Shown here one piece after another: positions 27,229 through 62,928 of a stretch of 64,000 nt of DNA. The notes beneath the pieces are model-generated. The model was not told the origin of the DNA, ran no database searches, and saw only the letters and a program-made list of their open reading frames with translations. The DNA is from Verrucomicrobiota bacterium (lineage in GTDB: Bacteria; Verrucomicrobiota; Kiritimatiellia; JAHIZV01): assembly GCA_018814445.1 (NCBI GenBank), contig JAHIZV010000218.1:2285-66284 (forward strand), written 5' to 3'. Numbering within the stretch: the stretch's first letter is position 1; every line of letters begins with the position of its first letter. The translations under genes and the position numbers were made by a program.

Positions 27229-30200
27229 ATGATGAGTTGGCTCGCCAAAATCAGCCTGGTGACGGTCGTTGTGGTGTGTCTGGGCGGAGTTGTGTCGCAT
27301 GCCGTTGATCTGCGGATCAACGAGTTCATGGCTGTGAATGACACGATTCTGCAGGACGCGGACGGCGACTACTCGGACTGGATCGAGATTTACAACGCGG
27401 AAACGACGTCCGTAGATCTCGCCGGCTGGCATCTCACAGACAGTGCCGGCAATCTCAGTCAGTGGACCTTCCCCTCCACCAACATCGCGGCAGGAGCCTA
27501 TCTCGTCGTGTTCGCCTCCGGCAAGAACCGGGCAGTCTCCGGCGAAGAGCTTCATACCGACTTCGCTCTGAAAGCCCTTGGCGAGTACCTGGCTCTCGTC
27601 GAGCCCGACGGTTCCACAGTCGTCTTCGAATACTCCCCCGCTTATCCACAGCAGTACCCGGACATTTCATTCGGCGTCGGAGCGGAAGGAACGGAAGTCA
27701 CTCTTGTCGAAACCGCGGCGGCGTGCCGGGTGCAGGTTCCTGTCGACGGCTCTCAGGATTCGAACTGGTTTGAGCGCGTCGGCTTCGACGACAGCGGCTG
27801 GAGCAACGGCTTCACCGGCGTCGGATACGAGCGCGGACTCGGTTACGAGCAACTGATCAATACGGACGTGCATGATCAGATGTGGAGCAACAACGGCACC
27901 TGCTATATGCGCATACCTTTTGTGCTGTCCGCGCCATCACTCTACGATTCGCTCAATCTACTCGTGAAATACGACGACGGGTTTGTCGCCTACTTGAACG
28001 GACGGGAAATAGCCAGCGCCAACGCGCCTGCCGATGCGCTCTGGAACTTTGTCTCCACAGCCGGACACGCCGATTCACTCGCCCTGATCTACGAGACCAA
28101 CCGGATCCCCAATGCCGCCGACGTGCTGCAGATCGGGACCAACATTCTCGCGGTTCATCTGCTCAACGAAACACTCACAAGTTCGGACGCGCTGCTGATG
28201 CCGAAACTCGTGGGCTTCACCACTCCGGCTTCGGACCCGGGCCTCCGCCGCTTCTTTGTCACGCCGACGCCCGGTGCACGGAACGGAACCGGGCTCGATG
28301 ACCTCGGCCCCGCAATTCTCAACGTCGCACAATCGCCCGAGCTTCCGACGACTGACGATGACATCTTCGTCTCGGCCCGGATCTTCGCCACGGGATCCGG
28401 CCTTTCCACGGCAACGCTCCACTATCTCGTCATGTTTGAAACGAACGAGACAGCTGTAACCATGGTCGACGACGGTGCGCACGGCGACGGACCGGCAGGC
28501 GATGAAGTATTCGGGGCGCCTATTCCAGCAGGGATCACAAACGCCGGCATGATGATCCGCTACTACATCACAGCAACCGACACAAACGGGGATCTGTCCC
28601 GCTGGCCGCTCGAGGGCGACCCCGGCCCCCACCTCGGAACGGTGCTGGCGGATCCCGCCGTCACAAGCGCTCTGCGAACACTTCACTGGTTTGTGGAGGA
28701 TCCCGACTGGCACAAGAACGACGGCGGCGGCAACAATTACAACTGGTCCCCGGCTTACGTCTGGTTCGACGGACGTTTCTATGACGGCGCGCAGGTGCGG
28801 GTTCGCGGCCAGAGTTCTAAGAACTGGCGCAAACCGAACTTCAAATTTGAGTTCGGGCAGGGACACTACTTCACATACCTGACGAACGAAACCGCCGTTG
28901 AAGAATTCAATCTGCAGAGCACCTACAGCGACAAGTCCTACATGCGCCGCTTTCTGACCTGGGAGACATACAAAGATGCCGGGGCGGCCTATGGAATTTC
29001 GGAAGTATGGCGGGTTCAGCAGAATGGCGAGTTCTACAGTGTGGCCGTATTCCTTGAGCAACCGGACGAGACGCTGCTTGAACGCAATGACTGGGATCCC
29101 GACGGCGCGCTTTACAAGATGTTCAATCAGTGCACGAGTTCGTCGAGTGGAGTTGAGAAGAAGACGCGAATAGATGAGAACAACGCAGATCTCGCGGAAC
29201 TCGTTGCCGGAGTTAATCCTTCACACAGCCAGACCGCGCGTGCGGCGTATATCTTCGACAACGTGGATATACCGAAGACGATCAACTACATCGCGGCCAC
29301 GGCCATCATTCACGACAACGATCACGTGGCCAAGAACTACTATGTCTACCGCGACACCGAAGGCGACGGGGAATGGACCTTCTATCCATGGGACAAGGAC
29401 CTGACGGTCGGCCGCAACTATGGCCCCGGCGGGGGCGTGCTTAGCGACGGCATATGGGCTGATGTGGACGAGATACCGGGACGCACCAATGTTGCGCCGA
29501 GTCACCCCCTCTTCGGCGACTCTGAACATCAGAAGTACGACTACCTCTGGAACCGGTTCATTGACGCCGCACTCGACACGCCGGCTATACGCGAGATGTA
29601 TCTGCGCAGACTGCGCACACTGATGGACGAGTTGCTCATGCCGTCGAATACGGCGCCCGCGGCCCAGTACTTCGAGAGCCGCATCATGACGCTGTATACC
29701 AATATCCTCCCCGATGTACTCGAAGACCGCATCGAGTGGGGCAATCCTTACGGCAGTAATCAGACTCTTGAAGTGGCGTTGAGCCTCCTCACGAATGAGT
29801 ACCTGGCCGTCCGCCGCAGGCATCTCTTCGACACACATACTTCCACAAACGGTGTCGGCATTCCCCCCGCTCAAACGAACAGTCCCACGATCACTTTCGG
29901 AAACATCGAATTCAAACCGGCAACAGGAAACCAGGAAGAGGAATTCATTGAACTGATCAACACCAACGACATCGCGGTGGAGATTTCCGGCTGGTCCGTC
30001 TCCAACTCCGTCGATTTCACATTTGAACCCGCGACGGTTATTCCCGCCCGTTCAAACCTTTTTGTTTCTCCGGACCTGCCCTCCTTCCGCGCCAGGTCAA
30101 CCAGTCCGAAGGGCGGCGAAAATCGGTTTGTTGTCGGCCCATACAACGGCCATCTCTCCGCGCGCGGAGAAACGATCTCGCTGTACGACGCTGAAGGCAC

Positions 30201-32103
30201 TCCCGTCAGTTCCCTCTCCTACACCGGCGATCCCAGCGCGCTGCAGGAGAACCTGCGGATTACGGAGATCATGTACCACCCGAATGATCCGCCGGAGGGG
30301 AGTCTCTTCACGGACGACGATTTTGAATTCGTCGAAGTGAAGAACATCAGTACGAACATGCTGGAGCTGACCGACGCATATTTTATTGAGGGCATCCGGC
30401 ACACCTTCACGAATGTCGTGCTGCAGCCCGGAGGCATTGCCGTGCTCGTGAAGAACTTCACCGCCTTCACGAACCGCTATGACACCAACGGGATGACCAT
30501 TGCGGGCGTGTATGACGGCGCCTTTGACAATGACGGGGATCATGTGAAACTCGAGGATCCCCTGAGCGAAACGATCCTCGAATTCTCGTTTGATGACGAC
30601 TGGGTGCGGACGACGGACGGCGGCGGCTACTCGCTCACGATCAAGGAAGAGACCAATAGCTTCGATACATGGGGGCTTTCAAACAGTTGGAAGGCCAGCA
30701 GCGTTTTCGGCGGAACCCCCGGATTCGATGAGCCCGCTCTCCCTGTCGGATCCGTGGTAATCAACGAGGCCCTGACGCACACCGACTCTACACAGGACTG
30801 GATAGAGGTTCGCAATACGACGACGGGAGCCGTCGACATCAGCGGGTGGCTTCTCAGCGACGAAGCCACACAGCTTGCCAAGTACGTCATCCCGAACGGC
30901 ACGCTGATTTCCGCGACTTCGACGCTCGTTTTCAGCGAGAGCGATTTCAACAATACGAGCAATCCCGCCTCGCTCCTGCCGTTTGCCCTCAGCGAACTCG
31001 GTGACAGCATTTTCCTGTCCTCGGCCTCAAACGGCATCCCGACCGAATACCGTGAAGCCGTCGAGTTCGGCCCGTCAGACAGAGAGGTTACGTTCGGCCG
31101 CTACGTCCGCAGCGACGGAGGGGCCGACTTCCCCACGATGCTCGCGCCGACGCGGGACAACACCAACACGCCGCCGAAAGTCGGTCCGCTGGTCATCAGT
31201 GAAGTCATGTACAACCCCGCAGGCGCAGGACTGGAATTCATCGAAATCCGCAACATCGCGTCGAGCAACATTGTTCTGTACGACCCGGCGCATCCGACCA
31301 ACACATGGAAACTGACGGGCGGCGTTGATTTCACGTTCCCCGCCGGACAGATCATGACCAAGGGCCGGCACACGCTGGTCGTGGGCACCGACCCCGTTCA
31401 ATTCCGCAACATATACGAGGTGCCCTTCGACATCGCCATCTTCGGTCCATATACCGGAGTGCTCGACAACGCGGGCGAGAGCATCAAACTTCGTCGGCCC
31501 GGAGACTCGGAAACGAATCTCGTGCCCTATGTGGTTGTTGATCAGGTGGACTACGACGACGTGATGCCGTGGCCCGTGGAACCGGACGGGACGGGTCCGT
31601 CTCTCGAGCGTATCGATGACTGGTCGTACGGAAATGATCCGATCAACTGGCGCGCGTCCGAAACAACCCCCTCCCCCGGCACCTCGCCACAGCGCGACGG
31701 GGATGGCGACGGCATGCCCGACAACTGGGAGGAGCGAACCTTCTTCTCCACCAACGCGATAGCTGGAGGAAGCTACGACGATTTCGACAAAGACGGACTT
31801 CTCAATATATGGGAGTACATCTACGGCAGCGGCGCGACCGACTCCAACGACGAATTCATGCTGGTGATTGCGGCCACCAACGGACAGCGGATTACTACTT
31901 TCCAATCACGTGAAGCAACAGGTCCCGGATACTGGGGCATGAATCGCTACTACACGCTCCAGGAATCGAGCAACATGATGACCGGCCCCTGGTTCGCGAT
32001 CCCGGGCCTGACCAATCTGACGGGCGACGGATCGATTATTGTCTACACGAATCCACCCTCGGAGCTACTCTGGTTCAATCGGCTCACGGTCTGGCTCGAG
32101 TAG
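27229..32103 (+). CDS. Giant secreted CotH kinase-family protein with about five lamin-tail (LTD) domains and a dockerin/TSP3-like C-terminal module
   Basis: Signal peptide. LTD signatures such as 'DWIEIYNAETTSVDLAGWHLTD', 'EEFIELINTNDIAVEISGWSVSNS', 'FEFVEVKNISTNMLELTDAYF', 'DWIEVRNTTTGAVDISGWLLSDEA', 'EFIEIRNIASSNIVLYD'. CotH core 'VRVRGQSSKNWRKPNFKFEF ... NLQSTYSDKSYMRRFLTWETYKDAG'. C-terminal 'DGDGDGMPDNWEE ... DFDKDGLLNIWEYIYGSG'. Confidence 0.8.
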   Translation: MMSWLAKISLVTVVVVCLGGVVSHAVDLRINEFMAVNDTILQDADGDYSDWIEIYNAETTSVDLAGWHLTDSAGNLSQWTFPSTNIAAGAYLVVFASGKNRAVSGEELHTDFALKALGEYLALVEPDGSTVVFEYSPAYPQQYPDISFGVGAEGTEVTLVETAAACRVQVPVDGSQDSNWFERVGFDDSGWSNGFTGVGYERGLGYEQLINTDVHDQMWSNNGTCYMRIPFVLSAPSLYDSLNLLVKYDDGFVAYLNGREIASANAPADALWNFVSTAGHADSLALIYETNRIPNAADVLQIGTNILAVHLLNETLTSSDALLMPKLVGFTTPASDPGLRRFFVTPTPGARNGTGLDDLGPAILNVAQSPELPTTDDDIFVSARIFATGSGLSTATLHYLVMFETNETAVTMVDDGAHGDGPAGDEVFGAPIPAGITNAGMMIRYYITATDTNGDLSRWPLEGDPGPHLGTVLADPAVTSALRTLHWFVEDPDWHKNDGGGNNYNWSPAYVWFDGRFYDGAQVRVRGQSSKNWRKPNFKFEFGQGHYFTYLTNETAVEEFNLQSTYSDKSYMRRFLTWETYKDAGAAYGISEVWRVQQNGEFYSVAVFLEQPDETLLERNDWDPDGALYKMFNQCTSSSSGVEKKTRIDENNADLAELVAGVNPSHSQTARAAYIFDNVDIPKTINYIAATAIIHDNDHVAKNYYVYRDTEGDGEWTFYPWDKDLTVGRNYGPGGGVLSDGIWADVDEIPGRTNVAPSHPLFGDSEHQKYDYLWNRFIDAALDTPAIREMYLRRLRTLMDELLMPSNTAPAAQYFESRIMTLYTNILPDVLEDRIEWGNPYGSNQTLEVALSLLTNEYLAVRRRHLFDTHTSTNGVGIPPAQTNSPTITFGNIEFKPATGNQEEEFIELINTNDIAVEISGWSVSNSVDFTFEPATVIPARSNLFVSPDLPSFRARSTSPKGGENRFVVGPYNGHLSARGETISLYDAEGTPVSSLSYTGDPSALQENLRITEIMYHPNDPPEGSLFTDDDFEFVEVKNISTNMLELTDAYFIEGIRHTFTNVVLQPGGIAVLVKNFTAFTNRYDTNGMTIAGVYDGAFDNDGDHVKLEDPLSETILEFSFDDDWVRTTDGGGYSLTIKEETNSFDTWGLSNSWKASSVFGGTPGFDEPALPVGSVVINEALTHTDSTQDWIEVRNTTTGAVDISGWLLSDEATQLAKYVIPNGTLISATSTLVFSESDFNNTSNPASLLPFALSELGDSIFLSSASNGIPTEYREAVEFGPSDREVTFGRYVRSDGGADFPTMLAPTRDNTNTPPKVGPLVISEVMYNPAGAGLEFIEIRNIASSNIVLYDPAHPTNTWKLTGGVDFTFPAGQIMTKGRHTLVVGTDPVQFRNIYEVPFDIAIFGPYTGVLDNAGESIKLRRPGDSETNLVPYVVVDQVDYDDVMPWPVEPDGTGPSLERIDDWSYGNDPINWRASETTPSPGTSPQRDGDGDGMPDNWEERTFFSTNAIAGGSYDDFDKDGLLNIWEYIYGSGATDSNDEFMLVIAATNGQRITTFQSREATGPGYWGMNRYYTLQESSNMMTGPWFAIPGLTNLTGDGSIIVYTNPPSELLWFNRLTVWLE

Positions 32104-34306: not shown

Positions 34307-34317
34307 GTCGGGCGTAT

Positions 34318-35521: not shown

Positions 35522-38155
35522 ATGCGCATATCGTTCAATAAAGAGATACTGCAGCGCATTACTCTGATTACATGTGTTTCTGTCGCCGCGACTGTCTCCA
35601 CTGCAAGTCAGACACTCCTCGTAGACTTCGGTAACAACTTATCGTTTCGAGGAACGAATGTGGTGAGTCCAGACTCAAACGGACATTACTGGAACAGCGT
35701 CCATTCCGCTGTGTACCACGCGGACATGGTCGATATCTCGAATAACACGACCACGGTGGATCTGGGATTCGATGCCGCGCCGGGAACGGACTTCTTCAAC
35801 GGTCCCTCCGGCACGAACGAGAATCCGGCGCTCTCCGAGTATGATGCGACTGCGCTCGGCGACCTTGGTGTGGATGAGGCGGTTTACGACTACTACGTCT
35901 CGTCGCGTTTTCAGGTCCAGGGCCTCGACACGGGGCGGACCTACAGCCTTACGTTCTTCGGTTCACACAAGTTCAGCGCGGATGATGCGACCGTCTACTC
36001 GGTCTACAGCAACACGAACTACACACAGGTCGTCGCTTCCGTCAGCCTGAACGTTCAGACGCCGGGATCGGCGTGGCTGCACAACAGCAACACGGTCGCC
36101 GTCATCAGCAACCTGGTGCCGCAGACCGGCAACATCCTGTATGTCGGCTTTGAAGGAAGCACCGGCGACAGCGGATACCTCAATGCGATGAAGATTGAAA
36201 GCGCTCCGCAGTCCGGCCCGCCCAGTCTCGAAGCTTATGTGAATCCCATGAACGGCAACGTTCCGGTTCCGAGGGAAACAAGGGTGGACGCCGACGAGAC
36301 GCGGAAGCTCGCGTTTCCCAGCGCGCGGGGATTCGGAAGGTTTGCCGACCCGGATATCGGGCCCGGACAGGACTTTGACGCGATCAAGGTGACTAACCTG
36401 CTTGATAGCGGGCCCGGTTCGTACCGCGACGCCATCATGTCCACGAACGGCCCGCGTGTAGTGATTTTCACTGTCAGCGGCACCATTGATCTCACCGAAA
36501 CCGTCCTGATGAGGGAGCCGCAGGACAACGTCTACGTTGCGGGCCAGACCAGTCCGGGAGGCATCCAGCTCAAATGCAGCGGCAACAATGAAAAAGCGCC
36601 GCTGCGCGCCGTCCGCACGCGGGACATCATTGCCCGTTTTCTGAAACTGCGGCCCGGGCTGGATCATGCGTTGAGTTCGGACGTCGACTCGCTCGCCATG
36701 AATGATGTTGAGAACAGCATCTTCGATCATCTCAGCCTGCAGTGGTCCACCGACGAGGCGGCACACATTACGTCGAAGGGCGACGGCGTCACGCTGCAAT
36801 GGTCGCTTCAATCCGAGCCGCTGCGCTGCGGCCCCTGCCGGAGCGATAATCATTCCCAGCACGATTACGGGGTCTTCTCCGACGTGAACAAGAACCTCAC
36901 GCTGTACAAGAACTTCTTCATGGGCGGGCGCTGGCGCAACCCGAATGTTCAGGCCACGAACGCGCTCGAGATGATCAACAACGTCGGCTACAACTACGGC
37001 GAGTACGCGGCGCAATTCTATGTGAATGCCACGCGCGGAAACCTTATCGCCAACATCATCGGCAACTGGTACTCAAAGGGCCCGCGTACCGCGGGCGACC
37101 CGCATATGCTCTTCGCGTCCTACGAGGGTTCGTCCAGCCACGGCTTCGAATTCTATGTGGATGGAAACATCGGCATGAGGGACACCTCGGGCGTGTGCAA
37201 CATCAACTTCCTCGCGCCTCATTTGACGAGTCCCGTCATGGAACAGAACGGAACACTGCTGACCCCGGACGGTCAGACCGGCATAGTTTTTGCGGTGGCC
37301 AGGGCGGACGGGTTGTCCATTCCCGCTGAAGATATCGTGTCCGCCGATCAGGCCATGAAAGATGTCATCGTTGGCGCGGGCGCCATGCAGGACATGTTCA
37401 GTACGCCGAGACGGGATCTCGTGGACGCGCGTTCCATGGGTCAGTTCCAGAACTGCGATGATACGGGCTACACGCCTCAGCCCGATCCGCTCGATGCGAT
37501 TCCGGCGCCCGGCTATCCGGATCTGACAACGAATACCACCTGGTCGTGGACGACCAATGACGTCGACGATGACGGCATGCTCGACGCCTGGGAGACGCTT
37601 TATGCTGATCTGAGCCTTGTCCCGAACGGTGATCCTGACGGGGACGGCTGGTCTAACATGGAAGAGTTCCTCAACTATATGGCGGGCGAGCACATTCAGT
37701 GGACCGGGACGGGTGATCCCGTCCTGGTCCCGCCCGTGTACTGCGGCTACCCGGTGGGGGTGCAGCCGACCGCCGACATGGACAGCGACGGCCTGCCGGA
37801 TGGATGGGAGTGGTTCCATTTCGGTCAAACGGACCATCCGAACGGGGAGCCCCACATCGATTGGGACGGCGACGGACACTCGAACCTTCAGGAGCTGTAC
37901 GCGGGAACGAACCCGACGAACGCATCATCGATCTTCATGATCAAAGAGGTGTCCCCGTCCGGAGACACGTACGAGGTCACCTGGCTGAGCGCGTCCGGCA
38001 AAACCTATGCCATCTACCGCACCGATGATCTCGTTTCCGGCTGGACCAATGCGGCATCGACCAACCACATTTCCGCCAGCCCCTCGGGCACAAACACCTG
38101 GTTCGATACACAGGCGCCAACCCACGGGGCGAGCTACCGCGTCAGGGTGGAGTAG
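35522..38155 (+). CDS. Secreted multidomain polysaccharide lyase (PL1 pectate-lyase-like) with an N-terminal 'DFG-YWNS' domain and the shared dockerin/TSP3-like plus beta-tail C-terminal module
   Basis: Signal peptide. N-terminal 'LLVDFGNNLSFRGTNVVSPDSNGHYWNSV ... QGLDTGRTYSLTFFGSHKF ... YLNAMKIE'. PL1-like 'IKVTNLLDSGPGSYRDAI ... VVIFTVSGTIDL', 'IFDHLSLQWSTDEAAHI', 'FMGGRWRNPNVQATNALEMINNVGYNYGEY'. C-terminal 'DPDGDGWSNMEEF', 'WDGDGHSNLQELYAGTNP', tail '...YAIYRTDDLVSGWTN...ASYRVRVE'. Confidence 0.7.
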   Translation: MRISFNKEILQRITLITCVSVAATVSTASQTLLVDFGNNLSFRGTNVVSPDSNGHYWNSVHSAVYHADMVDISNNTTTVDLGFDAAPGTDFFNGPSGTNENPALSEYDATALGDLGVDEAVYDYYVSSRFQVQGLDTGRTYSLTFFGSHKFSADDATVYSVYSNTNYTQVVASVSLNVQTPGSAWLHNSNTVAVISNLVPQTGNILYVGFEGSTGDSGYLNAMKIESAPQSGPPSLEAYVNPMNGNVPVPRETRVDADETRKLAFPSARGFGRFADPDIGPGQDFDAIKVTNLLDSGPGSYRDAIMSTNGPRVVIFTVSGTIDLTETVLMREPQDNVYVAGQTSPGGIQLKCSGNNEKAPLRAVRTRDIIARFLKLRPGLDHALSSDVDSLAMNDVENSIFDHLSLQWSTDEAAHITSKGDGVTLQWSLQSEPLRCGPCRSDNHSQHDYGVFSDVNKNLTLYKNFFMGGRWRNPNVQATNALEMINNVGYNYGEYAAQFYVNATRGNLIANIIGNWYSKGPRTAGDPHMLFASYEGSSSHGFEFYVDGNIGMRDTSGVCNINFLAPHLTSPVMEQNGTLLTPDGQTGIVFAVARADGLSIPAEDIVSADQAMKDVIVGAGAMQDMFSTPRRDLVDARSMGQFQNCDDTGYTPQPDPLDAIPAPGYPDLTTNTTWSWTTNDVDDDGMLDAWETLYADLSLVPNGDPDGDGWSNMEEFLNYMAGEHIQWTGTGDPVLVPPVYCGYPVGVQPTADMDSDGLPDGWEWFHFGQTDHPNGEPHIDWDGDGHSNLQELYAGTNPTNASSIFMIKEVSPSGDTYEVTWLSASGKTYAIYRTDDLVSGWTNAASTNHISASPSGTNTWFDTQAPTHGASYRVRVE

Positions 38156-38248: not shown

Positions 38249-41200
38249 CTACTGAGCCTGAACGCCAAGGCGGATATAGATCTTCCGCTCGGTCAGCGGA
38301 ACCAGATTGCTGACCGCATCGAAGTTGGGATCGGCTGCGCTCGTGGCTGAGAGTTCTGTGTAGCCGGCGTTGGTCCAGCTTCCTGCCAGCAGGTTCGTGC
38401 GCGACTGAAGGAAGTATGTGATGCCGCTGTCGATGCGGCGCGCGTATGTGTAGTGCACGACACTGGATCCGCCGGAGTCGGCGATCTCGATAGCGGGCAG
38501 GTAGCCGGTATCGAGTCCATTGGTCGGAACGCCTCCGAATCCAAATTCTCCAAGATTGAGAAGACCGTCACCGTCGTCGTCCGCATATCGCCCGCCGAGG
38601 CCGGGATAATCCAGCGCCCATTTCTCATAGGCAAAGGGAATGTCTCGGGCTTCGATCAGCATGGCATTCAGATAGCCTTCATTGCCGGCGGATCCTTTGA
38701 ATCCGACGTAGATCTTGTTGTCGTCATGCACGAGCAGGTTCGTGATAACGGCCACCGTGTTGCTGTTGTGCAGTTCAGATGAACCGGGCGTCTGAACGTT
38801 GAGCGTCGCGGAAGTGATCACGGTCGAGTAATTCGTGCCGGAGTAGATCGTGTAAACCGTCGCGTCGTCGGTGCTGAACTTGTGTGAGCCGAATAGGGTC
38901 AGATCATAGGTCCGGCCCGGATCCAGTCCCTGGATTTGAAACTTCGATGACACGTAGTAGTCGTTCACAGCGGCGTAAGAGCCGCCGATCAGTCCGAGCG
39001 CATTGGTATCGACGGCGTTCGTCGGCCCATTGAAACTGTCGCTGCCCGGCGCGTCGTCAAATCCAAGATTTATGCCGGTCGCAGTATTTGTTCTGTCGAT
39101 CAGGTTGGCATTGAACGCGCCGGACCAGACGCTGTTCCAGTAACTGCCTTTGCCATCGGGGTTGGAAACGGAAGTCCCGCGAAACGAGCTGTCCGCTCCA
39201 AAGTCGATCAGAATAGGACCGTGCTTTGGGGTTGTGGTTCTGACGGCGGCGCGTCCGTGCCAGAGGTGGCTGTTGGTGCCGCTTGAGCCCAGTGACACGG
39301 TCAGCACATTACTCTGCACGTTGGTCCAGGCCGCTGGCTGCCCTTCCAGCTGCACCGCGACAGGTCCGTCAAAGCCTGCCGGGAGTACCATCGTTGCGTT
39401 CGTGTCACCGACGGAATAGATCCAGAATTCGACACCCGCGCTGTTCGTCTGAACGACATAGGCGAGGCTATCAGACTTGCCGGGCGGAATGATGCAGGCG
39501 GCCAGCATGTCCGGCGACTCGGCGATGTAGCCGTACGGGGCGAGCGTCCAACCGTTCGTGCTCATCGGATTCGGACCCAGGTTGGCGGTTACTTCAACCG
39601 TACCGTATTTCGCCGCGATGAAGCCGTTGTCGGTATCGACCGCATTCGTTCCCCAATGATGCTCGAAGGAATAGACGGGTTCTCCGATGTAGCGCGCACA
39701 GACTGTTTTCTGCAGCCGGTCGATCCAGTACAACCATTGGCGGATCGGCGTACTCTCAACTTCTTCATCCCTGACGACATACGTCATGCCGTAACCGAGT
39801 CCCAAGGTCCATGCTGCGACTTCATGGTTGTGGACCGCGCCGCTGAGGTTGTTGTAGACCATCGACAGCTTGTCGTGGGCTATATGCTGTGCCAGGGGGA
39901 ATATAGTCCACGCCTTTGTCGAGTAGCGTTCACGCAGATACCTGCGCCAGAAGGGAGCGTTGGTGGTGGGCGCAAGTCCCCAGGCCAGTCCGCAGAACTG
40001 GGCTTCGTGGTTCACCAGCCGGTCGAAACCGTTTTCGGTCGATACCGGCATATACTCGCTGTCTTCGGCCGCGATGGCTGCGAGACCGGAGATGTAGGCA
40101 TGTGGCGCCGGGGAGTTGGTGTTCATGTCGTACTGTCCGGTACGCGCACCGATCTGATCATGGAAGATTATGTCCACGGGGTAATTCGTGATGAACAGTC
40201 CGCGCGTGTGTCGATTTGCAACCTGCACATCAGGATGCCACGGTGTGACGGTGTACCCGCCCTCTCCGAAGTACTCTTCAAATGAGAGTGATCCGTCCGG
40301 ATCGCGCAGAAGAGGATCTTCGCCCTTCGCAGTAAATGTTGGTCCGCGAGGATCCTCTCCCCAGAAAGTAGGATTGGTATACGGCATGACCATCTGGTCA
40401 TTGTCTTTCGCCTGTGCGAGCAGATTCGTGAACTCGGCCGATGTCCCGAACGTCGCGTTTGGAGGCAAGTGATCCGGGTATTGCTTGTCGAATCCTCCGT
40501 AGAGGTACTGTGCCAGATGAATGATTGAGGGTGAGGGCAGCTGGGAAAGCCGCTCAGTGAGACCGGTGGCTGTACCCAGACTGTTGATCAGCACCGAGTG
40601 TTTGAATGTGTTCAGTGTCGATGCCGACATCTTGTTCGTCAGCGTGCGGACAAAACCGTTCGCGCTGCTGTATGCAGCTAGTGAGTTCTCAACGGTCTCA
40701 CCAAGCACAAGCCTCACGACAGGCGACTGCCACGTTGTGTTTGTCTCCACATACGGGGTGAAAGCACGCTGGAAATATCCTCCTGTTGCATCGGCTCCCC
40801 ATTCAAGTCTTCCCGGAATGAACAGCGTCGCGGGATTCGTTGAGCCTGACCACGGATCGGCAGGAACGGGCTGAACGCCGTACAGCGAAGAGTTGCCGTT
40901 AGTCGTTTCGAGCTGGAAAAAGTCGGCGAATGCCGGCGGATAAAGTATGTTGTTCGTGTAATAGAGATTCGGCTGCAGAGCCTGATAGAAAGCATAACCG
41001 GCGACTTCGAACCAGTGACCGCCCGACTGAATATAGTTCCCAACCTCCGCAACCGTGGCAGACACGCCGCCTCCGAGGGACGCGGGCACGAGCTCGCCAT
41101 ATGGATTAAGGATCGCCAGGACATTCGTATTGGCCAACGCGTTGGTCATTTCGTCGACGTTGGTCAGTTCGAGAATATCTATTCCATTCGCGACAAGACT

Positions 41201-45300: not shown

Positions 45301-46222
45301 TTATCTTGTTGATTTCGCCGCTGCCGACGGCACGACTTATGATGATCCCGGCTATGTCTGGAATTCCATTCCTACCAATATGCCTGAGAGCATGGCAACA
45401 AACCTGACCAATGAGCTCGGTGACGACTCCGACGGGTACACCCTTATATTCGATAAGAAGTTCAACCAGTATCGCAGCGGCAGCGGCTCTGTGGCGGGGG
45501 GGTATGACGATGTTGCCGAGGACACCTGTTTCGCGCTGGGAAGCGTTACCACGTATGCGGCCAAGATGACCTTTGGTGGACTCAACACAAATAGTCTGTA
45601 CGACTTTCTCTTTCTCGCGCGACGGCCCAATTTCTCCTCCTTCAGCAACCTCGGATCCTACAGCTTCGAAGGCAGCGGGGAACCCGTCACCGTAGTCGTG
45701 GACGGCCGCGAGAATGAGGGTTACACCTTTGTGGGTCCTATTACCCCTGACGCAGGCGGCGAAATCTCGCTATCCGTTTCAAACATGCCCACGGCGCTGA
45801 TTCCCTTTGCCGTACTCAACGTCCTGCGCATGAGTGAGCGCACCGGTGCCGCAGGCGGAGAAGCTACACGCGGAGTTTCCGGCGATGCGGACGCAGACGG
45901 GAACTCCAATCTGAAAGAGTATATCTACAACATGAACCCCCTCGTCACGGATGCGGTGCTGTCCGGATTCGAGCCAATCCTGACCCAGTCCGGTCCGTCC
46001 CAGGTTTCGCTTTGGTATGATCGCTATCTCCCGGCGTCCGACGTTGCGTATGAGGTACAAAGTCGAACCAATCTACTGGCAGGCGTCTGGGAAACCGCAA
46101 CGGGCTTAACCGAAACAGTGGTCAACGACAACCGAACCGTCCGTTCGCTGCGGCTTGACCACGCCATCGCTGACGAAAAAGACGAGCTGTACCTCCGCTT
46201 GAGAATGGACTACGCCCCGTAG
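42398..46222 (+). CDS. Giant secreted SGNH/GDSL-hydrolase multidomain protein (paralog 1). Architecture: SGNH, 'DFG-YWNS' domain, LamG-like, FN3, 'DFG' domain x2, dockerin-like plus beta-tail. The start is uncertain (alternatives 42341 and 42416). The track ORF from 42134 overlaps the divergent gene and was rejected.
   Basis: Signal '...MLSQQGGPRPRNVAAVLWGVLLTLTLTAAPCGQA'. SGNH blocks 'GVLGSSVAKGY' (Ser), 'VTNVSTPGDNTSKA' (Gly), 'VALSLANQGL' (Asn), 'DPYHPTADGHAEF' (Asp-x-x-His). 'LVLIDFGPTNDALGRATASPDAYGNHWNSWRP ... LSGLDTGTVYTLRIFACRES ... FISLMEI'. LamG-like 'YGTVEVRDSSLAYVSPGG ... LFVNGLLYGTV'. FN3 'PSSLTARSYDTDSIELSWNN ... YIYRVAAKDG'. C-terminal 'DADADGNSNLKEYIYNMNP ... YEVQSRTNLLAGVWET ... 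ELYLRLRMDYAP'. Confidence 0.75.
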   Translation: MNNALRMLSQQGGPRPRNVAAVLWGVLLTLTLTAAPCGQAAPSNGVIGVLGSSVAKGYNGGGGYTNGSYVGGYIGQLTPVLEQRGWGVTNVSTPGDNTSKAYTNIFNKLIPANPDYAVVALSLANQGLVFSSDREATLESFRSGLTNILHTITTNGIQPVAVTLVYPSQAYTLDMYDYVKRMNLIINSWDIPSINLMGSQNDEQGRWVYEYINDPYHPTADGHAEFFYTVVPTLFDAIRVGKTNRPSLPPTGRFMRVTQESDQPAPLVYEPEYTMHSFTANFQVRTTGTGTVAAIRSSYTEPLVLIDFGPTNDALGRATASPDAYGNHWNSWRPDSLSAGTASNNLIDVAGAPTAIDIAITSAFSSASGRSSGFGLFQPEGPDPELLGSLAVETATEDYFRLTSSAGLTLSGLDTGTVYTLRIFACRESSVMKRTTDFQVTDRNGSTTYSMLTSGANTGRDGAYDGNNHRAIGFQDLYPKTNGTLLVSLSTTNEGFISLMEIGRSTPVPTNIYGTVEVRDSSLAYVSPGGVEITAPVDVNDGAFQDISLSHNFALQRTYLFVNGLLYGTVGERLVPDRFVLGGSDQADASAAPTQADYQAWCLYRSSWTPGEAMAQHLGALQQASLEVAAPLDDGAFALDDPVTNVAQSMASAYVRGTNVEVGIGPTPPSSLTARSYDTDSIELSWNNNAGGGLGTELHRRTAGTQWNLAADLGAGVAAFTDTGLDAGEEYIYRVAAKDGALLSGFSTSITASVGADGSSYEEWMSDYIPGDLRTWLIDFNSTVSTNYGGAVWNTLSSWTDATPRALVDTGGVTAARASIALIDPFDTSRSGNGSPLSTNDYAADAQSTLFVSTEYLDDQLDAGKASIRLSGLRRSLKYNVTIFARRGTVVSGFDYRSRYEVESLNGNSAAEVDTATNENTVMFADLSPDADGNITLSIGPADKPNGAIFAGISLMKVSEVPRVTNDFYLVDFAAADGTTYDDPGYVWNSIPTNMPESMATNLTNELGDDSDGYTLIFDKKFNQYRSGSGSVAGGYDDVAEDTCFALGSVTTYAAKMTFGGLNTNSLYDFLFLARRPNFSSFSNLGSYSFEGSGEPVTVVVDGRENEGYTFVGPITPDAGGEISLSVSNMPTALIPFAVLNVLRMSERTGAAGGEATRGVSGDADADGNSNLKEYIYNMNPLVTDAVLSGFEPILTQSGPSQVSLWYDRYLPASDVAYEVQSRTNLLAGVWETATGLTETVVNDNRTVRSLRLDHAIADEKDELYLRLRMDYAP

Positions 46223-50528: not shown

Positions 50529-50532
50529 GTGG

Positions 50533-51000: not shown

Positions 51001-51004
51001 GGGT

Positions 51005-53981: not shown

Positions 53982-54071
53982 ACGTGTCTCTCCTTAACTG
54001 TTGCAGATACTAGTTTCCAAAAAGGTCGCGTGCAACGTGATAGTGGCCGGTGTAGAAGCATGGGTTCGTTA

Positions 54072-54287: not shown

Positions 54288-54293
54288 CTTTGA

Positions 54294-55676: not shown

Positions 55677-55786
55677 ATTCTCTTCCTCGCCTCGCTACCG
55701 GTCGAAACGCCGGCGTTCTCCCGATCAGACATGTTGCAGGATGACATATTAACTTGCTGACGGATCGTCGAGAGCTGCGGGTTATA

Positions 55787-55796
55787 TTTACGTAAA
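55787..55796. promoter_or_regulatory. Palindromic box TTTACGTAAA(G), site 5, in the divergent promoter between GH1 and the esterase-GH65-SGNH operon
   Basis: 'TATATTTACGTAAAGTCT'. About 110 bp upstream of the GH1 start and about 80 bp upstream of the esterase start. Confidence 0.5.
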
Positions 55797-55875
55797 GTCT
55801 AGGCCCGTTTGTTGCTTTGCAGGCCTTCTGCTTGAATCAAGCCCATGGAATTCACGGAAAGAGAGACTCTACACC

Positions 55876-56745
55876 ATGACATGCACACCTCGTTACATAT
55901 CCGCCGGTGTCCTTGGCCTGCTGGCGGGCCTCATGATTCCCGCCATTTCGGAATCCATCATGACTGACGTGCAGAGCTACAGGAAGGTTGAGAACATCGC
56001 GTACCGCGAGGGACCGGAGCTGGAGGACTATGCGCGGGAACGGTGTCGTCTGGACATCTACTTCCCCGAAGGCGCCGCAGACTTTGCCACCGTCGTGTGG
56101 TTCCACGGGGGCGGTATGACGGCAGGAGAGAAGTATGTGCCGGGTGAGCTAATGAACCAGGGAATCGCGGTCGTCGCGGCTGAATACCGATTAAGTCCGC
56201 ATGTGAACGCGCCTGCGTACATCGAGGATGCTGCGGCCGCTGTCGCCTGGGTCTTCAAGAACATCGAGCAGTATGGCGGTTCAACTCAACGGGTATTTGT
56301 CGCCGGCGCTTCTGCAGGGGGTTACCTCGCGACCATGGTCGGCCTCGACAACCAATATCTCGCGGCCCACGGCATGGACGCGAACCGGATCGCCGGACTG
56401 ATTTCGCTGAGCGGCCAGGCCATCACACATTTCACGGTTCGCGCAGAGCGCGGCATCAGCGGCACACAACCGATGGTCGACGAACTGGCTCCGCTGTTTC
56501 ACGTCCGTGGTGACGCGCCTCCTTTGCTGCTGGTCACCGGCGACCGCGATCTCGAACTCTTCGGCCGCTACGAAGAGAACGCGTATTTCCAGCGCATGAT
56601 GAAAGTAGTTGGCCATGCGGATAACGAACTGCACGAGCTTAAAGGCAGGGACCACGGCGGTGTGGAGGCGCCCGCGCACAGCCTTCTTCTCGAGTTTCTG
56701 AAAAGGATCAACAAAACCATATCAACTGCCGGAGAAACGAAATGA
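55876..56745 (+). CDS. Secreted alpha/beta-hydrolase esterase (Abhydrolase_3-type; candidate carbohydrate esterase)
   Basis: Signal peptide. 'VVWFHGGGMTAGEK' HGGG oxyanion motif. 'FVAGASAGGYLA' nucleophile elbow. ATGA overlap with the downstream GH65 gene. Confidence 0.8.
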   Translation: MTCTPRYISAGVLGLLAGLMIPAISESIMTDVQSYRKVENIAYREGPELEDYARERCRLDIYFPEGAADFATVVWFHGGGMTAGEKYVPGELMNQGIAVVAAEYRLSPHVNAPAYIEDAAAAVAWVFKNIEQYGGSTQRVFVAGASAGGYLATMVGLDNQYLAAHGMDANRIAGLISLSGQAITHFTVRAERGISGTQPMVDELAPLFHVRGDAPPLLLVTGDRDLELFGRYEENAYFQRMMKVVGHADNELHELKGRDHGGVEAPAHSLLLEFLKRINKTISTAGETK

Positions 56746-59151: not shown

Positions 59152-62100
59152 ATGAAAGAAACCAAAACGCACGCACTTCTGCACCTCTTCTTTGTGGCCG
59201 TATTTTCTCTCACGGCTGTTTCGCACGCGGCCCCCACCAATCTCATGGTCTATGGCTCGTCGGTGGCCCGGGGCTACTCGGCCAGGGATGACTTCGGGGC
59301 ATATACCACCAACAACGGCTCCCTCGGGCTGGCTTATGCCGGCCGGCTGACCACATTGCTGGGCCGGGACGGGTGGTACGTTACCAATTCTTCTACACCG
59401 GGCGACAACACGGCCCTGGCTATCGCCGACTTCAACAGCAAAGTGGTTTCGCAGTCGCCGGATTTCGTGCTGATCGGGTTGTCTTTGGGCAATGAAGGCC
59501 TGCACTCCACGCCAAGACCGGATTCGGCCGTCAACATCTTCAGCAACGGCATGCAGGAGCTGATCGGGTTATGCAGGACGAATGATTTCTATCCAATCGT
59601 CACGCTCGTATATCCCAACAACAACTTCTACGAGCGGCACTACGACCGGGTCAAGGCGATGAATCTTGTGATGAATACGTGGGACGTCCCCAGTTTCAAT
59701 TTACTGGGCGCTCTTGATGACGGCACGGGAAAGTGGGTCGACGGATACTGGAAAGATCCATTACATCCCAATGCTGACGGACACCTTGAGTTCTTCTGCA
59801 CGTTTGTTCCCAGCCTCTTCGACGCAATCAATGCAGGAAAGACCAACAGCCCCGACATCAGCAGCGCGGTCAACTTCGCGCGCGCAACGCGGGATTTGAC
59901 CGAACCCGCTCAGATCGAGTTCGTTCCCTCCAACACCATGCACTCCTTCACGACCCGGTTCCGAGTTCGTACGACGGATACGGGCAGCGTCGCTGCCGTG
60001 CGGCTCGCACCTCCAAAGATACTTGTCGATTTCGGGCCGAACAACGATGACGACGGGCGGCGTGCTTCGGATCCTGATGAAAACGGAAACTACTGGAACA
60101 GTTGGCGGCCGATCGACGGCTATACCAATCTGAATTACATCGTCTCGGGAACCTCAACATCCGGATTGATAACTTCGGACAATCAGTCCACAGAAGTCGG
60201 CCTCGAGATCACGGAGAACTTCACGGGCGCCAACGGAATCCAGAATGGCGGGCTTGATGACCCGGATGGTCCTCAGTTCTCTCTCCTCGGCGACTTCGCC
60301 GTGGAGACAGCCACGGAAGACTATTTCTACGACGGCAATACCGCAGCCTTCAAGATCACGGGCCTCAATACCGGCAGCCTCTACACGCTGCGGTTCTTCG
60401 GGACGCGAGCCTGGTCGTCGGAGACGCGTGAGACCCGCTATGTTGCCGCGGGCGGCAATGGGCCTTTGACCAATGATCTCGTTACGTCCGGCAACAACGT
60501 CGGCAGCGACGGCGTATATGATGGCAACGATGACACGATCGTGAGCATCACGGGACTGGCCGCGACCGCGAGCGGTGTAATCACGGTCAGACTGTCCACG
60601 GTGCAGGGATCGTACAGCTACCTCGGCATTATGGAAATCGCACAGGAAACACCCGTTGTCACCAACGGTTACGGGACCATTGAAGTCCGAGACACGGAGA
60701 TCGCGTACGCATCTCCGAGCGGGTCGGAGATTACTGCTTCGGTCGATGCGAACGACGGAAGTTGGTACGACATCGCCCTTTCCCACCGATACGCGAAGCA
60801 GGAGACGCTCCTGTATGTGGACGGAGCAGAAGCCGGAACACTCTCCGAAAGCATCGTCCCTCAAGCTTTCGTGCTGGGCGGACCGGATGCGGCGGACGGC
60901 GCACCGCCATCACCTTCGACCGCCGATTACCAGGACTGGTGCGTCTACCGCGCGGCCTGGACAGAGGCAGAAGCATTGGCCCAGCATGAGGGTCATCTGC
61001 AGCAGGCCAGCCTCGAAATCTGCGCGCCGCTGAGCGACAGCACTTTTCCGCAAGGAGGCAGGGCAACGAACGAAGCACAGAGCCTCTCCGTCGTGACCAT
61101 CAACATCGACGACCTCAGCGCGACGGCTGCCGTCACGGCGCCAGGCAATCTCCAGGCCGCGTCCTACGCCCTGGACGAAGTGGAGTTGTCGTGGACGGAC
61201 AACAGCACCACCGAAAGCGGCTACGTCGTCGAACGCAGAATCAGTGAGTCAGGCGCAATGTGGACCAACATCGCAGCACTCTCTGCCGGCTCGACCTCCT
61301 ACAAGGACAGCGATGTGTCCGCAGGCATCACTTATGATTACCGGGTGTCGACCGACGAGGGAACCGTGCAAAGTGAATACTCGAATGTGGTCACCATCGA
61401 ACCGGGTGAAGACGGACAAACCTACCAGACCTGGCGCAACCGGTTCTTTCTGGCGAATGCCGGCCGCTACCTTGTAGATTTCAACACGCTCGCAAGCCCC
61501 GACTACGGCGGCGTAATCTGGAACACTGCGACCAGCCTCACCGCAATGATCTCCTACGACCTGACGGCGACCAATGGCGATGCTTCGGCCGGGTACGTAC
61601 TGACGATTACGGATGCTTTCGACCAGTTCAGGTCCGGCAACGGAAGCCCTCTGAGCGGGTTCGACAATGACGCTCAGAGCACGATCTTCGTCACAACCAA
61701 TGACACGCCGAAGATGGGTCAGGTCACGCTTTCAGGTTTGAACGACCGCTTTATCTATGACGTCACGGTTTTCGGCAGGCGCGGCTCACTCTTCGCCGGA
61801 TACGACTACCGCGCCCGGTACAACGTCAGCGGAAGAGACGGGGACATCAGTTTTGAAGTGAATACAGCCACGAACGAAATCGCCTCCCATGTATTCGGTT
61901 TGAGGCCACGGGACGGACGCATCGCCATAGACGTGGCAGCACCGGACGCGCCGACAGGCAAAGTCTTTGCCGGCGTCAGCCTGCTGGCCTTCGAGGACAT
62001 GAGTCCGGGCAACACCTTCCTTATTGATTTCAATGACCGTGCCGGCGTTACGTATCCGGACGGGCAGTCCTGGAACGTGGTCACGGGCCCTACCGCCGCC

Positions 62101-62928
62101 GCAACCTACAATCTGGTCGACGTATCCGGCAGCGCCGCAGAAGGCTTCTCGTTGACGATGAATGATGCGTTCAGTGACTCGCGTGACAAGAACGGCGGGG
62201 CAATTGGAGGATTCACGGAAGAGGCGGAGAGCGTCCTGTTCAACCTGAACGGCTTCGGAGATACCGCTCAAATGACGTTCTCCGGACTTGACGTGAGCCT
62301 GACCTACGACTTCACGTTCCTCGCGAGCAGGAGAAATCCATTCGCGTCGTCGTATGATTACAATGCGAGGTTCGTGTTCACCGGCGGCGGAGACCCGGTC
62401 ACCAGCGTCGTTGACTCCGCCGATAACGATTACTACACGCTTATCGAAGGTATTCAGCCGGACGGCGGAGGTGACATCGTTCTCACGGTCGATTCACCGC
62501 AGGATGTCGGCGGCAAAACGGAGTTCCCGGTCCTCAACCTGATTCGCATGACCGAGGAAAGCATGAGCAATACCGTGCAGTCGGCATCTTCCGATGATCC
62601 TGACGGCGACGGCATTGCCAACTTTGTTGAGTACGCACACAACTTCGACCCGACGAATACTGGTGTGAACACGTTCTCAGTGGATCAGGTCGGTGTGGAA
62701 GGCGGTGGAACAACCTTCGTCGGCTATTATGACAGGTACAAGCCGGCCCGGGAAATCACCTACGGCGTCGAAAGCACCACCAACCTTCTCGCGCCCGACT
62801 GGCAGCCCGATGCGGGTATCAGCTTGAGCGTGGTCAGCGATGCCGGCACAGCACAGACCATCAAACTGCAAAGGGCCGTGACGGAGACGACCCTCTTCAT
62901 CCGGGTCGCTACTGAATACACGCCCTGA
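59152..62928 (+). CDS. Giant secreted SGNH/GDSL-hydrolase multidomain protein (paralog 2), with the same architecture as 42398..46222
   Basis: Signal 'MKETKTHALLHLFFVAVFSLTAVSHA'. SGNH blocks 'LMVYGSSVARGY', 'VTNSSTPGDNTA', 'IGLSLGNEGL', 'DPLHPNADGHLEF'. 'KILVDFGPNNDDDGRRASDPDENGNYWNSWRP ... ITGLNTGSLYTLRFFGTRA ... YLGIMEI'. LamG-like 'YGTIEVRDTEIAYASPSG ... LYVDGAEAGTL'. FN3 'NLQAASYALDEVELSWTDN ... YDYRVSTDEG'. Two further 'LVDFN.../FLIDFN...' domains. C-terminal 'DPDGDGIANFVEYAHNFDP ... YGVESTTNLLAPDWQP ... LFIRVATEYTP'. Confidence 0.8.
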   Translation: MKETKTHALLHLFFVAVFSLTAVSHAAPTNLMVYGSSVARGYSARDDFGAYTTNNGSLGLAYAGRLTTLLGRDGWYVTNSSTPGDNTALAIADFNSKVVSQSPDFVLIGLSLGNEGLHSTPRPDSAVNIFSNGMQELIGLCRTNDFYPIVTLVYPNNNFYERHYDRVKAMNLVMNTWDVPSFNLLGALDDGTGKWVDGYWKDPLHPNADGHLEFFCTFVPSLFDAINAGKTNSPDISSAVNFARATRDLTEPAQIEFVPSNTMHSFTTRFRVRTTDTGSVAAVRLAPPKILVDFGPNNDDDGRRASDPDENGNYWNSWRPIDGYTNLNYIVSGTSTSGLITSDNQSTEVGLEITENFTGANGIQNGGLDDPDGPQFSLLGDFAVETATEDYFYDGNTAAFKITGLNTGSLYTLRFFGTRAWSSETRETRYVAAGGNGPLTNDLVTSGNNVGSDGVYDGNDDTIVSITGLAATASGVITVRLSTVQGSYSYLGIMEIAQETPVVTNGYGTIEVRDTEIAYASPSGSEITASVDANDGSWYDIALSHRYAKQETLLYVDGAEAGTLSESIVPQAFVLGGPDAADGAPPSPSTADYQDWCVYRAAWTEAEALAQHEGHLQQASLEICAPLSDSTFPQGGRATNEAQSLSVVTINIDDLSATAAVTAPGNLQAASYALDEVELSWTDNSTTESGYVVERRISESGAMWTNIAALSAGSTSYKDSDVSAGITYDYRVSTDEGTVQSEYSNVVTIEPGEDGQTYQTWRNRFFLANAGRYLVDFNTLASPDYGGVIWNTATSLTAMISYDLTATNGDASAGYVLTITDAFDQFRSGNGSPLSGFDNDAQSTIFVTTNDTPKMGQVTLSGLNDRFIYDVTVFGRRGSLFAGYDYRARYNVSGRDGDISFEVNTATNEIASHVFGLRPRDGRIAIDVAAPDAPTGKVFAGVSLLAFEDMSPGNTFLIDFNDRAGVTYPDGQSWNVVTGPTAAATYNLVDVSGSAAEGFSLTMNDAFSDSRDKNGGAIGGFTEEAESVLFNLNGFGDTAQMTFSGLDVSLTYDFTFLASRRNPFASSYDYNARFVFTGGGDPVTSVVDSADNDYYTLIEGIQPDGGGDIVLTVDSPQDVGGKTEFPVLNLIRMTEESMSNTVQSASSDDPDGDGIANFVEYAHNFDPTNTGVNTFSVDQVGVEGGGTTFVGYYDRYKPAREITYGVESTTNLLAPDWQPDAGISLSVVSDAGTAQTIKLQRAVTETTLFIRVATEYTP

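Follow-up and report, generated by a model that had tools for sequence, protein, structure and literature searches.

Among the described systems that come closest to the module considered here, the T9SS CTD of Bacteroidota (Por_Secre_tail, PF18962 / TIGR04183) is a folded Ig-like beta-sandwich of about 80-100 residues; restricted to one lineage and present in many copies per genome, it forms the extreme C-terminal end of many unrelated enzymes and adhesins exported by Sec. Type I dockerins (PF00404), candidates for protein-protein docking with a Ca2+ loop-helix, are placed C-terminally on carbohydrate-active enzymes; with ~70 residues, they consist of two duplicated F-hand segments and lack a beta-sandwich. 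The PEP-CTERM / exosortase signal (TIGR02595), common in the PVC superphylum, is a C-terminal tag on secreted proteins, including those with PATR repeats. To our knowledge, no T9SS is known in Kiritimatiellia. Some members of this group, Pontiella for example, play a major part in the anaerobic degradation of sulfated algal polysaccharides; Pontiella-type Kiritimatiellia have hundreds of genes for exported sulfatases and glycoside hydrolases. In a 64-kb window (the whole stretch of 64,000 nucleotides analyzed here), several large enzymes end in a two-part tail, which has a probability of about one half of being a new C-terminal address or anchor module specific to the Kiritimatiellia lineage.

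The original prediction held that five unrelated enzymes of the window, here called proteins A to E, terminate in the same module. All ORFs, coordinates and motifs that it quoted are present, and in each of the five proteins a D-x-D-x-D-G-x-x-N-x-x-E loop precedes the final 84-99 residues. The complete tail of protein C, a DUF6259 protein encoded on the minus strand (ORF 38249-42319; NCBI MBU0679281.1), spans residues 1220-1356 (38252..38662) and comprises a Trp-helix (FAYEKWALDYPGLGG), a Ca loop of the EF-hand/TSP3-type pattern (DDDGDGLLNLGE; 38546-38581) and an Ig-like beta part (38252-38542) with KIYIRLGVQAQ as its terminus. The remaining four proteins are encoded on the plus strand. Protein D, the first of two SGNH esterase paralogs (ORF 42134-46222; the real start codon is probably at 42398 or 42416), has its tail at 45884..46219, with the Ca loop DADADGNSNLKE at 45884-45919 and a beta part at 45923-46219 that ends in LYLRLRMDYAP. 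In protein E, the second paralog (ORF 59152-62928) and identical to the database representative P0001, the tail covers 62596..62925, with the Ca loop DPDGDGIANFVE at 62596-62631 and a beta part at 62635-62925 terminating in LFIRVATEYTP. The tail of the pectate-lyase-like protein B (ORF 35522-38155) lies at 37859..38152 and is made up of the last TSP3 loop of this protein (DWDGDGHSNLQE; 37859-37894) and a divergent beta tail (37901-38152; terminus ASYRVRVE). Protein A, with five LTD domains and a CotH domain (ORF 27229-32103), possesses a tail region at 31696..32100 with TSP3-type loops at 31696-31731 and 31780-31815 and a tail-like beta region at 31825-32100 (terminus NRLTVWLE). The number of loops differs among the proteins: C, D and E have a single one per tail, A has two of the TSP3 type and B has four TSP3 loops. 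Signal-peptide-like N-termini are present on all carriers of the window. To speak of five unrelated enzymes overstates the case since D and E are paralogous (41% identity over 1268 aa) and a second module of ~200 aa is common to B, C, D and E.

An internal, N-proximal copy of the module had also been claimed for a GH13 enzyme (minus strand, ORF 12805-15660), and a corresponding segment is indeed found there at 14806..15093, behind the signal peptide. The order is signal peptide, Trp-helix (LYQIWATHCG), loop (DDDGDGVSNQDE; 15058-15093), a beta region containing DYELQTAMGLGLPSWTV (residues 203-285; 14806-15054), a further TSP3 loop and CBM48/GH13. The first part of the module has the same D-x-D-x-D-G-x-x-N-x-x-E loop as TSP3_bac (PF18884), a 22-residue loop only, which comes without the sandwich of ~95 residues and without a positional rule. 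The gathering threshold of PF18884 (25 bits) is passed by protein B (28.6 bits) and by the GH13 copy (25.3 bits); the loops of C, D, E and A give no Pfam TSP3_bac match at this threshold, despite their pattern.

The resemblance might be compositional or confined to the D-x-D-x-D-G loop, with no common tail domain behind it. We tested homology on loop-free sequences. The tails of C, D and E are mutually significant in pairwise comparisons (E 1e-6 to 2e-14; D-E 2e-14, C-D 1e-6). They match a reference profile of 100 sequences, none of which stems from the window, with E-values of 1e-31 for C, 4e-14 for E and 1.5e-11 for D. Judged by these alignments, the three tails are clearly homologous. The tail of protein B alone reaches 18.5 bits, a score attained by none of 2000 shuffles (HMMER); it is aligned with the family by hhalign at a probability of 95% over 54 columns, matches the tail of the carrier P0073 with a BLAST E-value of 1e-6 and is, by these scores, a divergent family member. 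Protein A preserves the motif order of the family; its loop-free tail attains 8.0 bits, a score that 6 of 2000 shuffles also reach (HMMER), and falls short of significance in the search with the family profile (E 0.92). Its HSP with B (E 2e-6) runs mostly through two TSP3 loops and the first strand, and none of the loop-free pairs A-B, A-C, A-E and B-E is significant. For the GH13 copy, HMMER gives 10.1 bits (one of 2000 shuffles as high) and hhalign a P-value of 1.9e-4 and a probability of 48%. On sequence grounds, protein A and the GH13 copy are hence only marginal members of the family; the latter would be a distant relative and is no C-terminal tag. The claim of a common ending consequently holds for C, D and E and, in divergent form, for B. 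The values for protein A and for the four pairs speak for a purely compositional resemblance. The loop-free scores reject it for C, D, E and B, and, given in addition a loop-free profile that matches 187 database clusters and a confident fold from a deep alignment, we consider it extremely improbable.

The module is ~125-135 residues long and consists of a Trp-containing helix, a Ca2+ loop/helix and a beta-sandwich. Its loop part, one canonical 12-residue EF-hand/TSP3-type loop followed by a helix (D.DGDG..NL.EYA.GGNPTN), is the best-conserved portion and is predicted to bind Ca2+; the top-conserved columns are the Ca-ligand D, D, D, G, N and E together with W, P-T-N, Y, L, W, F..V.N and R. 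The beta part of ~95 residues is acidic (mean net charge -6) and Ig/fn3-like, and its final strand, F-I-R-L-x-I, lies 0-7 residues ahead of the stop codon. An AlphaFold2 model of the protein C tail on a deep alignment (pLDDT 93.6, pTM 0.82) contains the Trp-helix, the loop and an Ig/fn3-like sandwich. Together with the motifs found, it bears out the anticipated two-part architecture of a Ca loop and a beta-rich domain with an h-h-R-h end strand. The protein A tail, modeled on a five-sequence alignment, attained a pLDDT of only 52. As a fold, the sandwich is of a generic Ig/fn3 type (Foldseek TM <=0.40), and its similarity to fn3/Ig-like domains such as the cytokine-receptor fn3 domain 6nmy_D (8% identity) is at the fold level only; in contrast to these, the tail is strictly terminal and has a Ca-loop unit attached. 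Pfam fn3 (PF00041) is not matched by the tails alone, and the fn3 matches in protein D (aa 756-839) and protein E (aa 663-749) are located outside of them. The conserved GGNPTN was also considered as a sortase-B-like 'NPxTN' motif, and we rejected this reading because the spacing is wrong and a downstream transmembrane helix and basic tail are absent. There is no sequence match in Pfam, NCBIfam or the PDB that covers the whole tail module, and searches with the isolated tails at E<=10 in both Pfam and NCBIfam brought up no sorting or anchoring model, in line with the original prediction. The tails belong to a real domain family that lacks a Pfam or NCBIfam model, and its description therefore fills an annotation gap.

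We searched 1.84 billion representatives with a profile built from the three loop-free tails of C, D and E and obtained 187 protein clusters at E<=1e-3. The domain ends within five residues of the C-terminus in 135 of the 150 matches listed, and within seven residues in 134 of the 135 matches of at least 40 bits; in every one of 22 metagenome loci, and in locus L081 as well, the tail runs into the stop codon. The passengers across 64 carriers include GH10, GH16, GH88, sulfatase, SGNH, SASA, polysaccharide lyase, S9 and M6 peptidases, CBM96 and LamG; one carrier has PATR repeats, and proteins with such repeats usually have an autotransporter barrel or a PEP-CTERM signal at their end. An N-terminal hydrophobic run was detected by a crude test in 58 of 72 apparently complete carriers, and from this test and inspection by eye the carriers appear to have Sec-type N-termini. 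The few carriers of nameable source are labeled Kiritimatiellia/Verrucomicrobiota. The cultured Pontiella desulfatans F1 has three carriers within 25.8 kb (the domain is found in WP_136077709.1), two carriers are adjacent in locus L085, and the 64-kb window holds three to five; 1.19 Mb of argG-flanking loci, drawn from 80 genomes, contained no carrier. Many unrelated enzymes of Kiritimatiellia (Pontiellaceae and relatives) have the module fused to their extreme C-terminus. A terminal placement so close to absolute, on many different secreted enzymes, supports the view of a sorting or anchoring tag, of which it is the expected signature.

Alternatively, the tail might be a structural or glycan-binding accessory domain without a sorting role, either an Ig-like domain serving as a spacer or a CBM-like module with affinity for the substrate or the cell's own exopolymer, its terminal placement merely reflecting modular enzyme assembly in this lineage. 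The carriers are mostly polysaccharide-degrading or otherwise carbohydrate-active enzymes, and a generic Ig/fn3 sandwich suits a spacer or glycan-binding role as well. One bona fide internal copy (P0067, with a MAM domain after it) and related internal copies in P0016, P0025 and the GH13 enzyme show that the terminal position is not structurally obligatory. A possible ligand is provided by the sulfated exopolymers that Pontiella is reported to make (PMC7356697), and neither the window nor 15 carrier loci yielded a partner gene. Binding to the cell's own exopolymer would merge this alternative with surface retention. On the other hand, the same tail occurs on xylanases, GH16 enzymes, sulfatases, esterases, peptidases, the PATR protein and the DUF6259 protein, with a marginal relative also on the CotH kinase-like protein, whereas substrate-targeting CBMs follow the specificity of the catalytic domain. 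Moreover, we know of neither spacer Ig domains nor CBMs with a terminal rule as strict as 134 of 135, and Trp-helix, Ca loop and sandwich travel as one unit (pTM 0.82). An accessory role is, in our judgment, quite possible, if somewhat unlikely.

The original prediction had suggested looking for a co-conserved partner gene, and none emerged: no cohesin-like, sortase-like or secretion-component partner is conserved in the window or in the 15 carrier loci, and clustering of neighboring genes over these loci revealed no universal partner or recurrent neighbor. This result also bears on a dockerin-like mode of action, in which the Ca2+ loop-helix and the sandwich would bind a cohesin-like scaffold and thereby assemble lyase, esterases and hydrolases into a multi-enzyme complex at the cell surface. 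The canonical EF-hand/F-hand-type loop followed by a helix, the strong conservation of precisely these elements, and the C-terminal placement on many carbohydrate-active enzymes clustered in the genome are in keeping with this idea. However, Pfam detects neither Dockerin_1 nor cohesin in any window protein scanned, and no candidate scaffold protein with repeated modules is encoded in the window or the 15 loci. Identity with dockerins was rejected on the single loop in C, D and E, the sandwich downstream of it and the missing PF00404 match. We judge a scaffold-bound complex of this kind to be improbable.

The preferred reading, that of an address or anchor module, draws on terminal placement on many unrelated enzymes, which makes the tail look like a surface-retention or sorting tag. 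A carrier enzyme would first be exported by Sec; its folded tail, presumably stabilized by Ca2+, would then attach to an outer-membrane, exopolymer or scaffold component and in this way keep the enzyme on the cell surface, or might instead be recognized for translocation across the outer membrane. Literature searches revealed no relevant C-terminal, dockerin or TSP3 sorting domain from Kiritimatiellia, Pontiella or Verrucomicrobia, and two Pontiella genome papers (PMC7356697, PMC10880615) neither mention such a domain nor address by which route enzymes cross the outer membrane or how they are kept on it. If the tail is a true lineage-specific tag, it would offer a handle for finding the outer-membrane route, its profile would predict the set of surface-exposed or secreted enzymes from genomes and MAGs, and it might be used as a display tag. 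Its presence in the cultured P. desulfatans F1 makes the targeting hypothesis directly testable.

In comparison with the known systems, the tail is a folded acidic domain that lacks a PEP motif, a transmembrane helix and a basic C-terminal stretch. Identity with PEP-CTERM, which the original prediction had correctly denied, is rejected by the acidic beta part, the lack of any hydrophobic run of at least six residues within the last 45 aa and the absence of an NCBIfam match. With the T9SS CTD, it has in common the sandwich, the terminal position and signal-peptide-like N-termini on its carriers, features that are insufficient for T9SS membership; the Trp-helix and the Ca2+ loop are additional in the Kiritimatiellia tail. 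Identity with the T9SS CTD was rejected since there is neither sequence nor profile similarity (no PF18962/TIGR04183 match at E<=10; hhalign probability of 0.2% to the CTD of P0010). The 64-kb window contains none of the T9SS core genes PorK/L/M/N, SprA and PorU/V. It is a doubtful but consequential proposition that the tail might be the signal recognized by a so far undescribed pathway of Kiritimatiellia for outer-membrane export or attachment, which would have a receptor of its own and perhaps an enzyme for processing or attachment. Such a pathway would parallel the T9SS CTD system in function and, if true, would explain how specialists for sulfated polysaccharides display many enzymes at their surface. 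The role that we propose for the tail is analogous to, and not homologous with, that of T9SS CTDs or dockerins.

All five open reading frames that the original prediction had endowed with a common C-terminal module are present as it described them, and each motif string that it quoted could be located in the window proteins. According to Pfam and NCBIfam matches, protein A (27229-32103, plus strand, 1624 aa) carries five LTD domains and CotH, protein B (35522-38155, plus strand, 877 aa) a weak PelZ-like pectate lyase match and four TSP3 loops, and protein C (38249-42319, minus strand, 1356 aa) DUF6259; the paralogs D (42134-46222, plus strand, 1362 aa) and E (59152-62928, plus strand, 1258 aa) both combine SGNH with fn3. 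Residues 410-430 of A (28456-28518) additionally give a sub-threshold match (19.3 bits, cut-off 25) to the NCBIfam model 'choice-of-anchor X', a name that in Haft's convention denotes a class of domain found in proteins with alternative C-terminal anchors. Protein C corresponds to MBU0679281.1 (1343 aa in the NCBI annotation, labeled 'Verrucomicrobia bacterium', on a contig of 66.9 kb). The window stems from a Kiritimatiellia MAG, and its ArgG protein is 78-79% identical to ArgG of Kiritimatiellia MAGs. Signal-peptide-like N-termini are found in all five proteins, in D only with a start at 42398 or 42416 (Met89 or Met95) and not at 42134. In the stretch 42134-42416, the mechanically called reading frame of D, with its start at 42134, overlaps the 5' end of gene C; since the signal-peptide-like N-terminus of D begins only at Met89 or Met95, C and D would be divergently transcribed from a short intergenic region that they have in common.

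The C-terminal module, here called the tail, comprises about 130 residues with a calcium loop (D-x-D-x-D-G-x-x-N-x-x-E) and an Ig-like beta part. With the D-x-D-x-D-G loop excised and the last 84-99 residues compared alone, the tails of C, D and E recognize each other both in pairwise comparisons (E-values of 1e-6 to 2e-14) and with leave-one-out profiles (1e-8 to 1e-12); judged by these sequence comparisons, they are homologous. An independent profile of 100 tail sequences from which those of the window were absent recovers C (1e-31), E (4e-14) and D (1.5e-11), reaches an E-value of only 0.0024 for B, and is not significant for A (0.92). The assignment of B as a divergent family member is supported by an hhalign probability of 95%, by a score of 18.5 bits that none of 2000 shuffles attained, and by a direct BLAST match (E-value 1e-6) to the tail of the database protein P0073. 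For A, whose tail scores 8.0 bits (reached by 6 of 2000 shuffles) and whose similarity to B (E-value 2e-6) arises mostly from a double TSP3 loop, membership is marginal. The same grade applies to the weaker internal copy that had been proposed for the GH13 enzyme (residues 203-285; 10.1 bits, 1 of 2000 shuffles, hhalign P-value 1.9e-4). Hence, the claim of one module on five proteins stands firmly for C, D and E, is supported for B, and is only marginal for A. The loop-free tails of C, D, E and B still match significantly or beat shuffled sequences, which refutes a resemblance in composition only for these four and extends their conservation beyond the loop.

An AlphaFold2 model of the last 137 residues of C, built on a 45-sequence alignment (pLDDT 93.6, pTM 0.82), places a helix (11-16), the calcium loop and a second helix (36-42) ahead of strands at 57-63, 66-76, 81-88, 114-122 and 129-136 with additional short bridges. 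It thereby predicts the suspected beta-sandwich in the form of an Ig-like fold. Foldseek searches of the PDB with this model returned generic Ig-like domains only (TM-scores of at most 0.40, E-values of at least 1.5e-3), and a sequence search of the PDB with the tail gave no match. The ligand spacing of the loop is that of a canonical EF-hand, with D at positions 1, 3 and 5, N at 9 and E at 12. With a mean net charge of -6, the beta part is acidic, and it is free of hydrophobic stretches. Neither Pfam-A (2025) nor NCBIfam (June 2026) covers the tail, even at E-values up to 10, and no described sorting or anchoring family was matched there; the sole hit on the loop is TSP3_bac, in B and the GH13 enzyme only. 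As had been anticipated, the tail is no PEP-CTERM signal, since it has no PEP motif, transmembrane helix or basic tail. Identity with a T9SS CTD was rejected by sequence (hhalign probability 0.2%), and identity with a dockerin was likewise rejected, because the tail has a single loop where dockerins have two and contains a sandwich in addition. That the tail is nevertheless dockerin-like, with its EF-hand-type loop, and builds a multi-enzyme complex therefore strikes us as improbable.

Searching 1.84 billion cluster representatives with a loop-free profile of three tails yielded 187 proteins at E-values up to 1e-3. Among the matches listed, the domain ends within 5 residues of the protein C-terminus in 135 of 150 representatives, and the remainder are mostly spurious multi-repeat matches. 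With an expanded profile, no more than 7 residues separate the end of the match from the C-terminus in 134 of the 135 matches of at least 40 bits; the sole clear exception is P0067, in which a MAM domain follows the tail. At 22 metagenome loci and at a locus of Pontiellaceae bacterium B12227, each tail runs directly into the stop codon. Conserved upstream in nearly all is the unit Y..W....GL.G followed by D.DGD(G)..NL.EYA.GGNPTN. The handful of carriers with organism names, P0013 from Pontiellaceae bacterium B12227, P0017 from 'Verrucomicrobia bacterium' DRP64, and a 1938-aa 'choline-sulfatase' from the cultured Pontiella desulfatans F1 (WP_136077709.1; A0A6C2TWL6), are all Kiritimatiellia or Verrucomicrobiota-labeled. 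Six syntenic metagenome loci (L095-L097, L100, L101, L103), seemingly from closely related organisms, encode paralogues of about 930-970 aa. At their C-termini, the match to the tail profile is confined to its first two-thirds (E-values of 1e-5 to 1e-8), and they may form a divergent subfamily. On a 4.0-Mb metagenome contig, the FG-GAP/ASH-rich giant protein P0025 (2533 aa; L104, 10001-17602) carries partial tail-like copies at two sites, in its interior (aa ~2105-2174) and at its terminus (aa ~2483-2552); its locus also codes for cytochrome oxidases.

The passengers of 64 carriers comprise GH10, GH16, GH88, sulfatase/SGSH_C, SGNH, SASA and polysaccharide lyase domains, together with S9 and M6 peptidases, CBM96, LamG and FGE-sulfatase. 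PATR proteins (autotransporter-associated beta-strand repeats) otherwise terminate in the barrel of an autotransporter or in a PEP-CTERM signal; the PATR-repeat protein P0091 (768 aa, JGI) has neither at its C-terminus and ends in a tail-like domain (...QQFFRVQAIIAP). This range bears on the view that the tail is an accessory domain whose role is only structural or glycan-binding, with which its generic fold would be compatible: a substrate-binding CBM would be unexpected across xylanases, sulfatases, peptidases, esterases and a PATR protein, and we regard this alternative as rather unlikely.

A second module, which spans about 200 aa and is probably a beta domain resembling a CBM, is shared by B (35594-36208; aa 25-229), C (38648-39214, minus strand; aa 1036-1224), D (43307-43903; aa 392-590) and E (59998-60639; aa 283-496). 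It has no Pfam model, is marked by LLVDFGN...FRG...GYLNAM.IE, and is 59% identical between B and C (1e-64 to 1e-71). P0073 contains three copies and P0013 at least two; in C, it lies directly upstream of the tail.

Three tail carriers reside within 25.8 kb of the P. desulfatans chromosome and two stand side by side at another locus (L085), whereas 1.19 Mb of argG-flanking DNA from 80 genomes (about a dozen of them Kiritimatiellia/Verrucomicrobiota) contained none; the carriers are thus concentrated in regions of polysaccharide utilisation. Within the window, a gene set for alpha-glucan-type utilisation (51719-59063 and 12805-15660) comprises GH87-like alpha-1,3-glucanase, GH1, BD-FAE esterase, GH65 and secreted GH13, and the same families, a GH87-like enzyme, two GH65 and a BD-FAE esterase, flank P0013 in Pontiellaceae bacterium B12227 (L081, 1-9769). 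Between carriers D and E, a minus-strand gene run (46210-51718) encodes a prepilin-type N-methylation/DUF1559 protein (46910-47554), a membrane protein of 644 aa that matches nothing in Pfam (48212-50146), two small open reading frames (50103-51000) for which size and position alone suggest ExbD, and MotA/ExbB (51005-51718). A minus-strand block of housekeeping biosynthesis genes (8005-21676) begins with panC, panB, dapB and dapA, followed by the secreted GH13 gene and then by a PLP-dependent Orn/DAP/Arg-type decarboxylase (lysA-like), argG, a class-III aminotransferase (argD-like), an amino-acid kinase (argB-like) and argJ. This otherwise anabolic run is interrupted by the GH13 gene, whose product has the TSP3 loops.

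Collectively, the tail is a conserved, modular and acidic domain with a calcium loop and a predicted Ig-like fold. With hardly any exceptions, it forms the very C-terminal end of many unrelated proteins that begin with signal-peptide-like sequences and whose genes are clustered. It might act as an address module common to these proteins, which would either retain or dock them at the surface or signal their translocation across the outer membrane. We put the probability of such a sorting or retention role at roughly one in two; against it speak the generic fold, a few internal copies, and our failure to find a partner gene near the carriers. The sorting or anchoring interpretation of the original prediction is a plausible hypothesis that has withstood the tests named for its refutation. 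Two Pontiella genome papers mention signal peptides and no C-terminal domain (PMC7356697, PMC10880615), and our other literature searches on such a domain retrieved nothing relevant. Much of the interest of the tail rests on P. desulfatans F1, as its presence in a cultured organism makes the targeting hypothesis directly testable. Folded C-terminal tags on secreted enzymes are of a kind already known, and we would place the tail among them. The address-module reading is proposed by analogy: to our knowledge, the same combination of features otherwise occurs only in the T9SS CTD, in dockerins and in PEP-CTERM signals.
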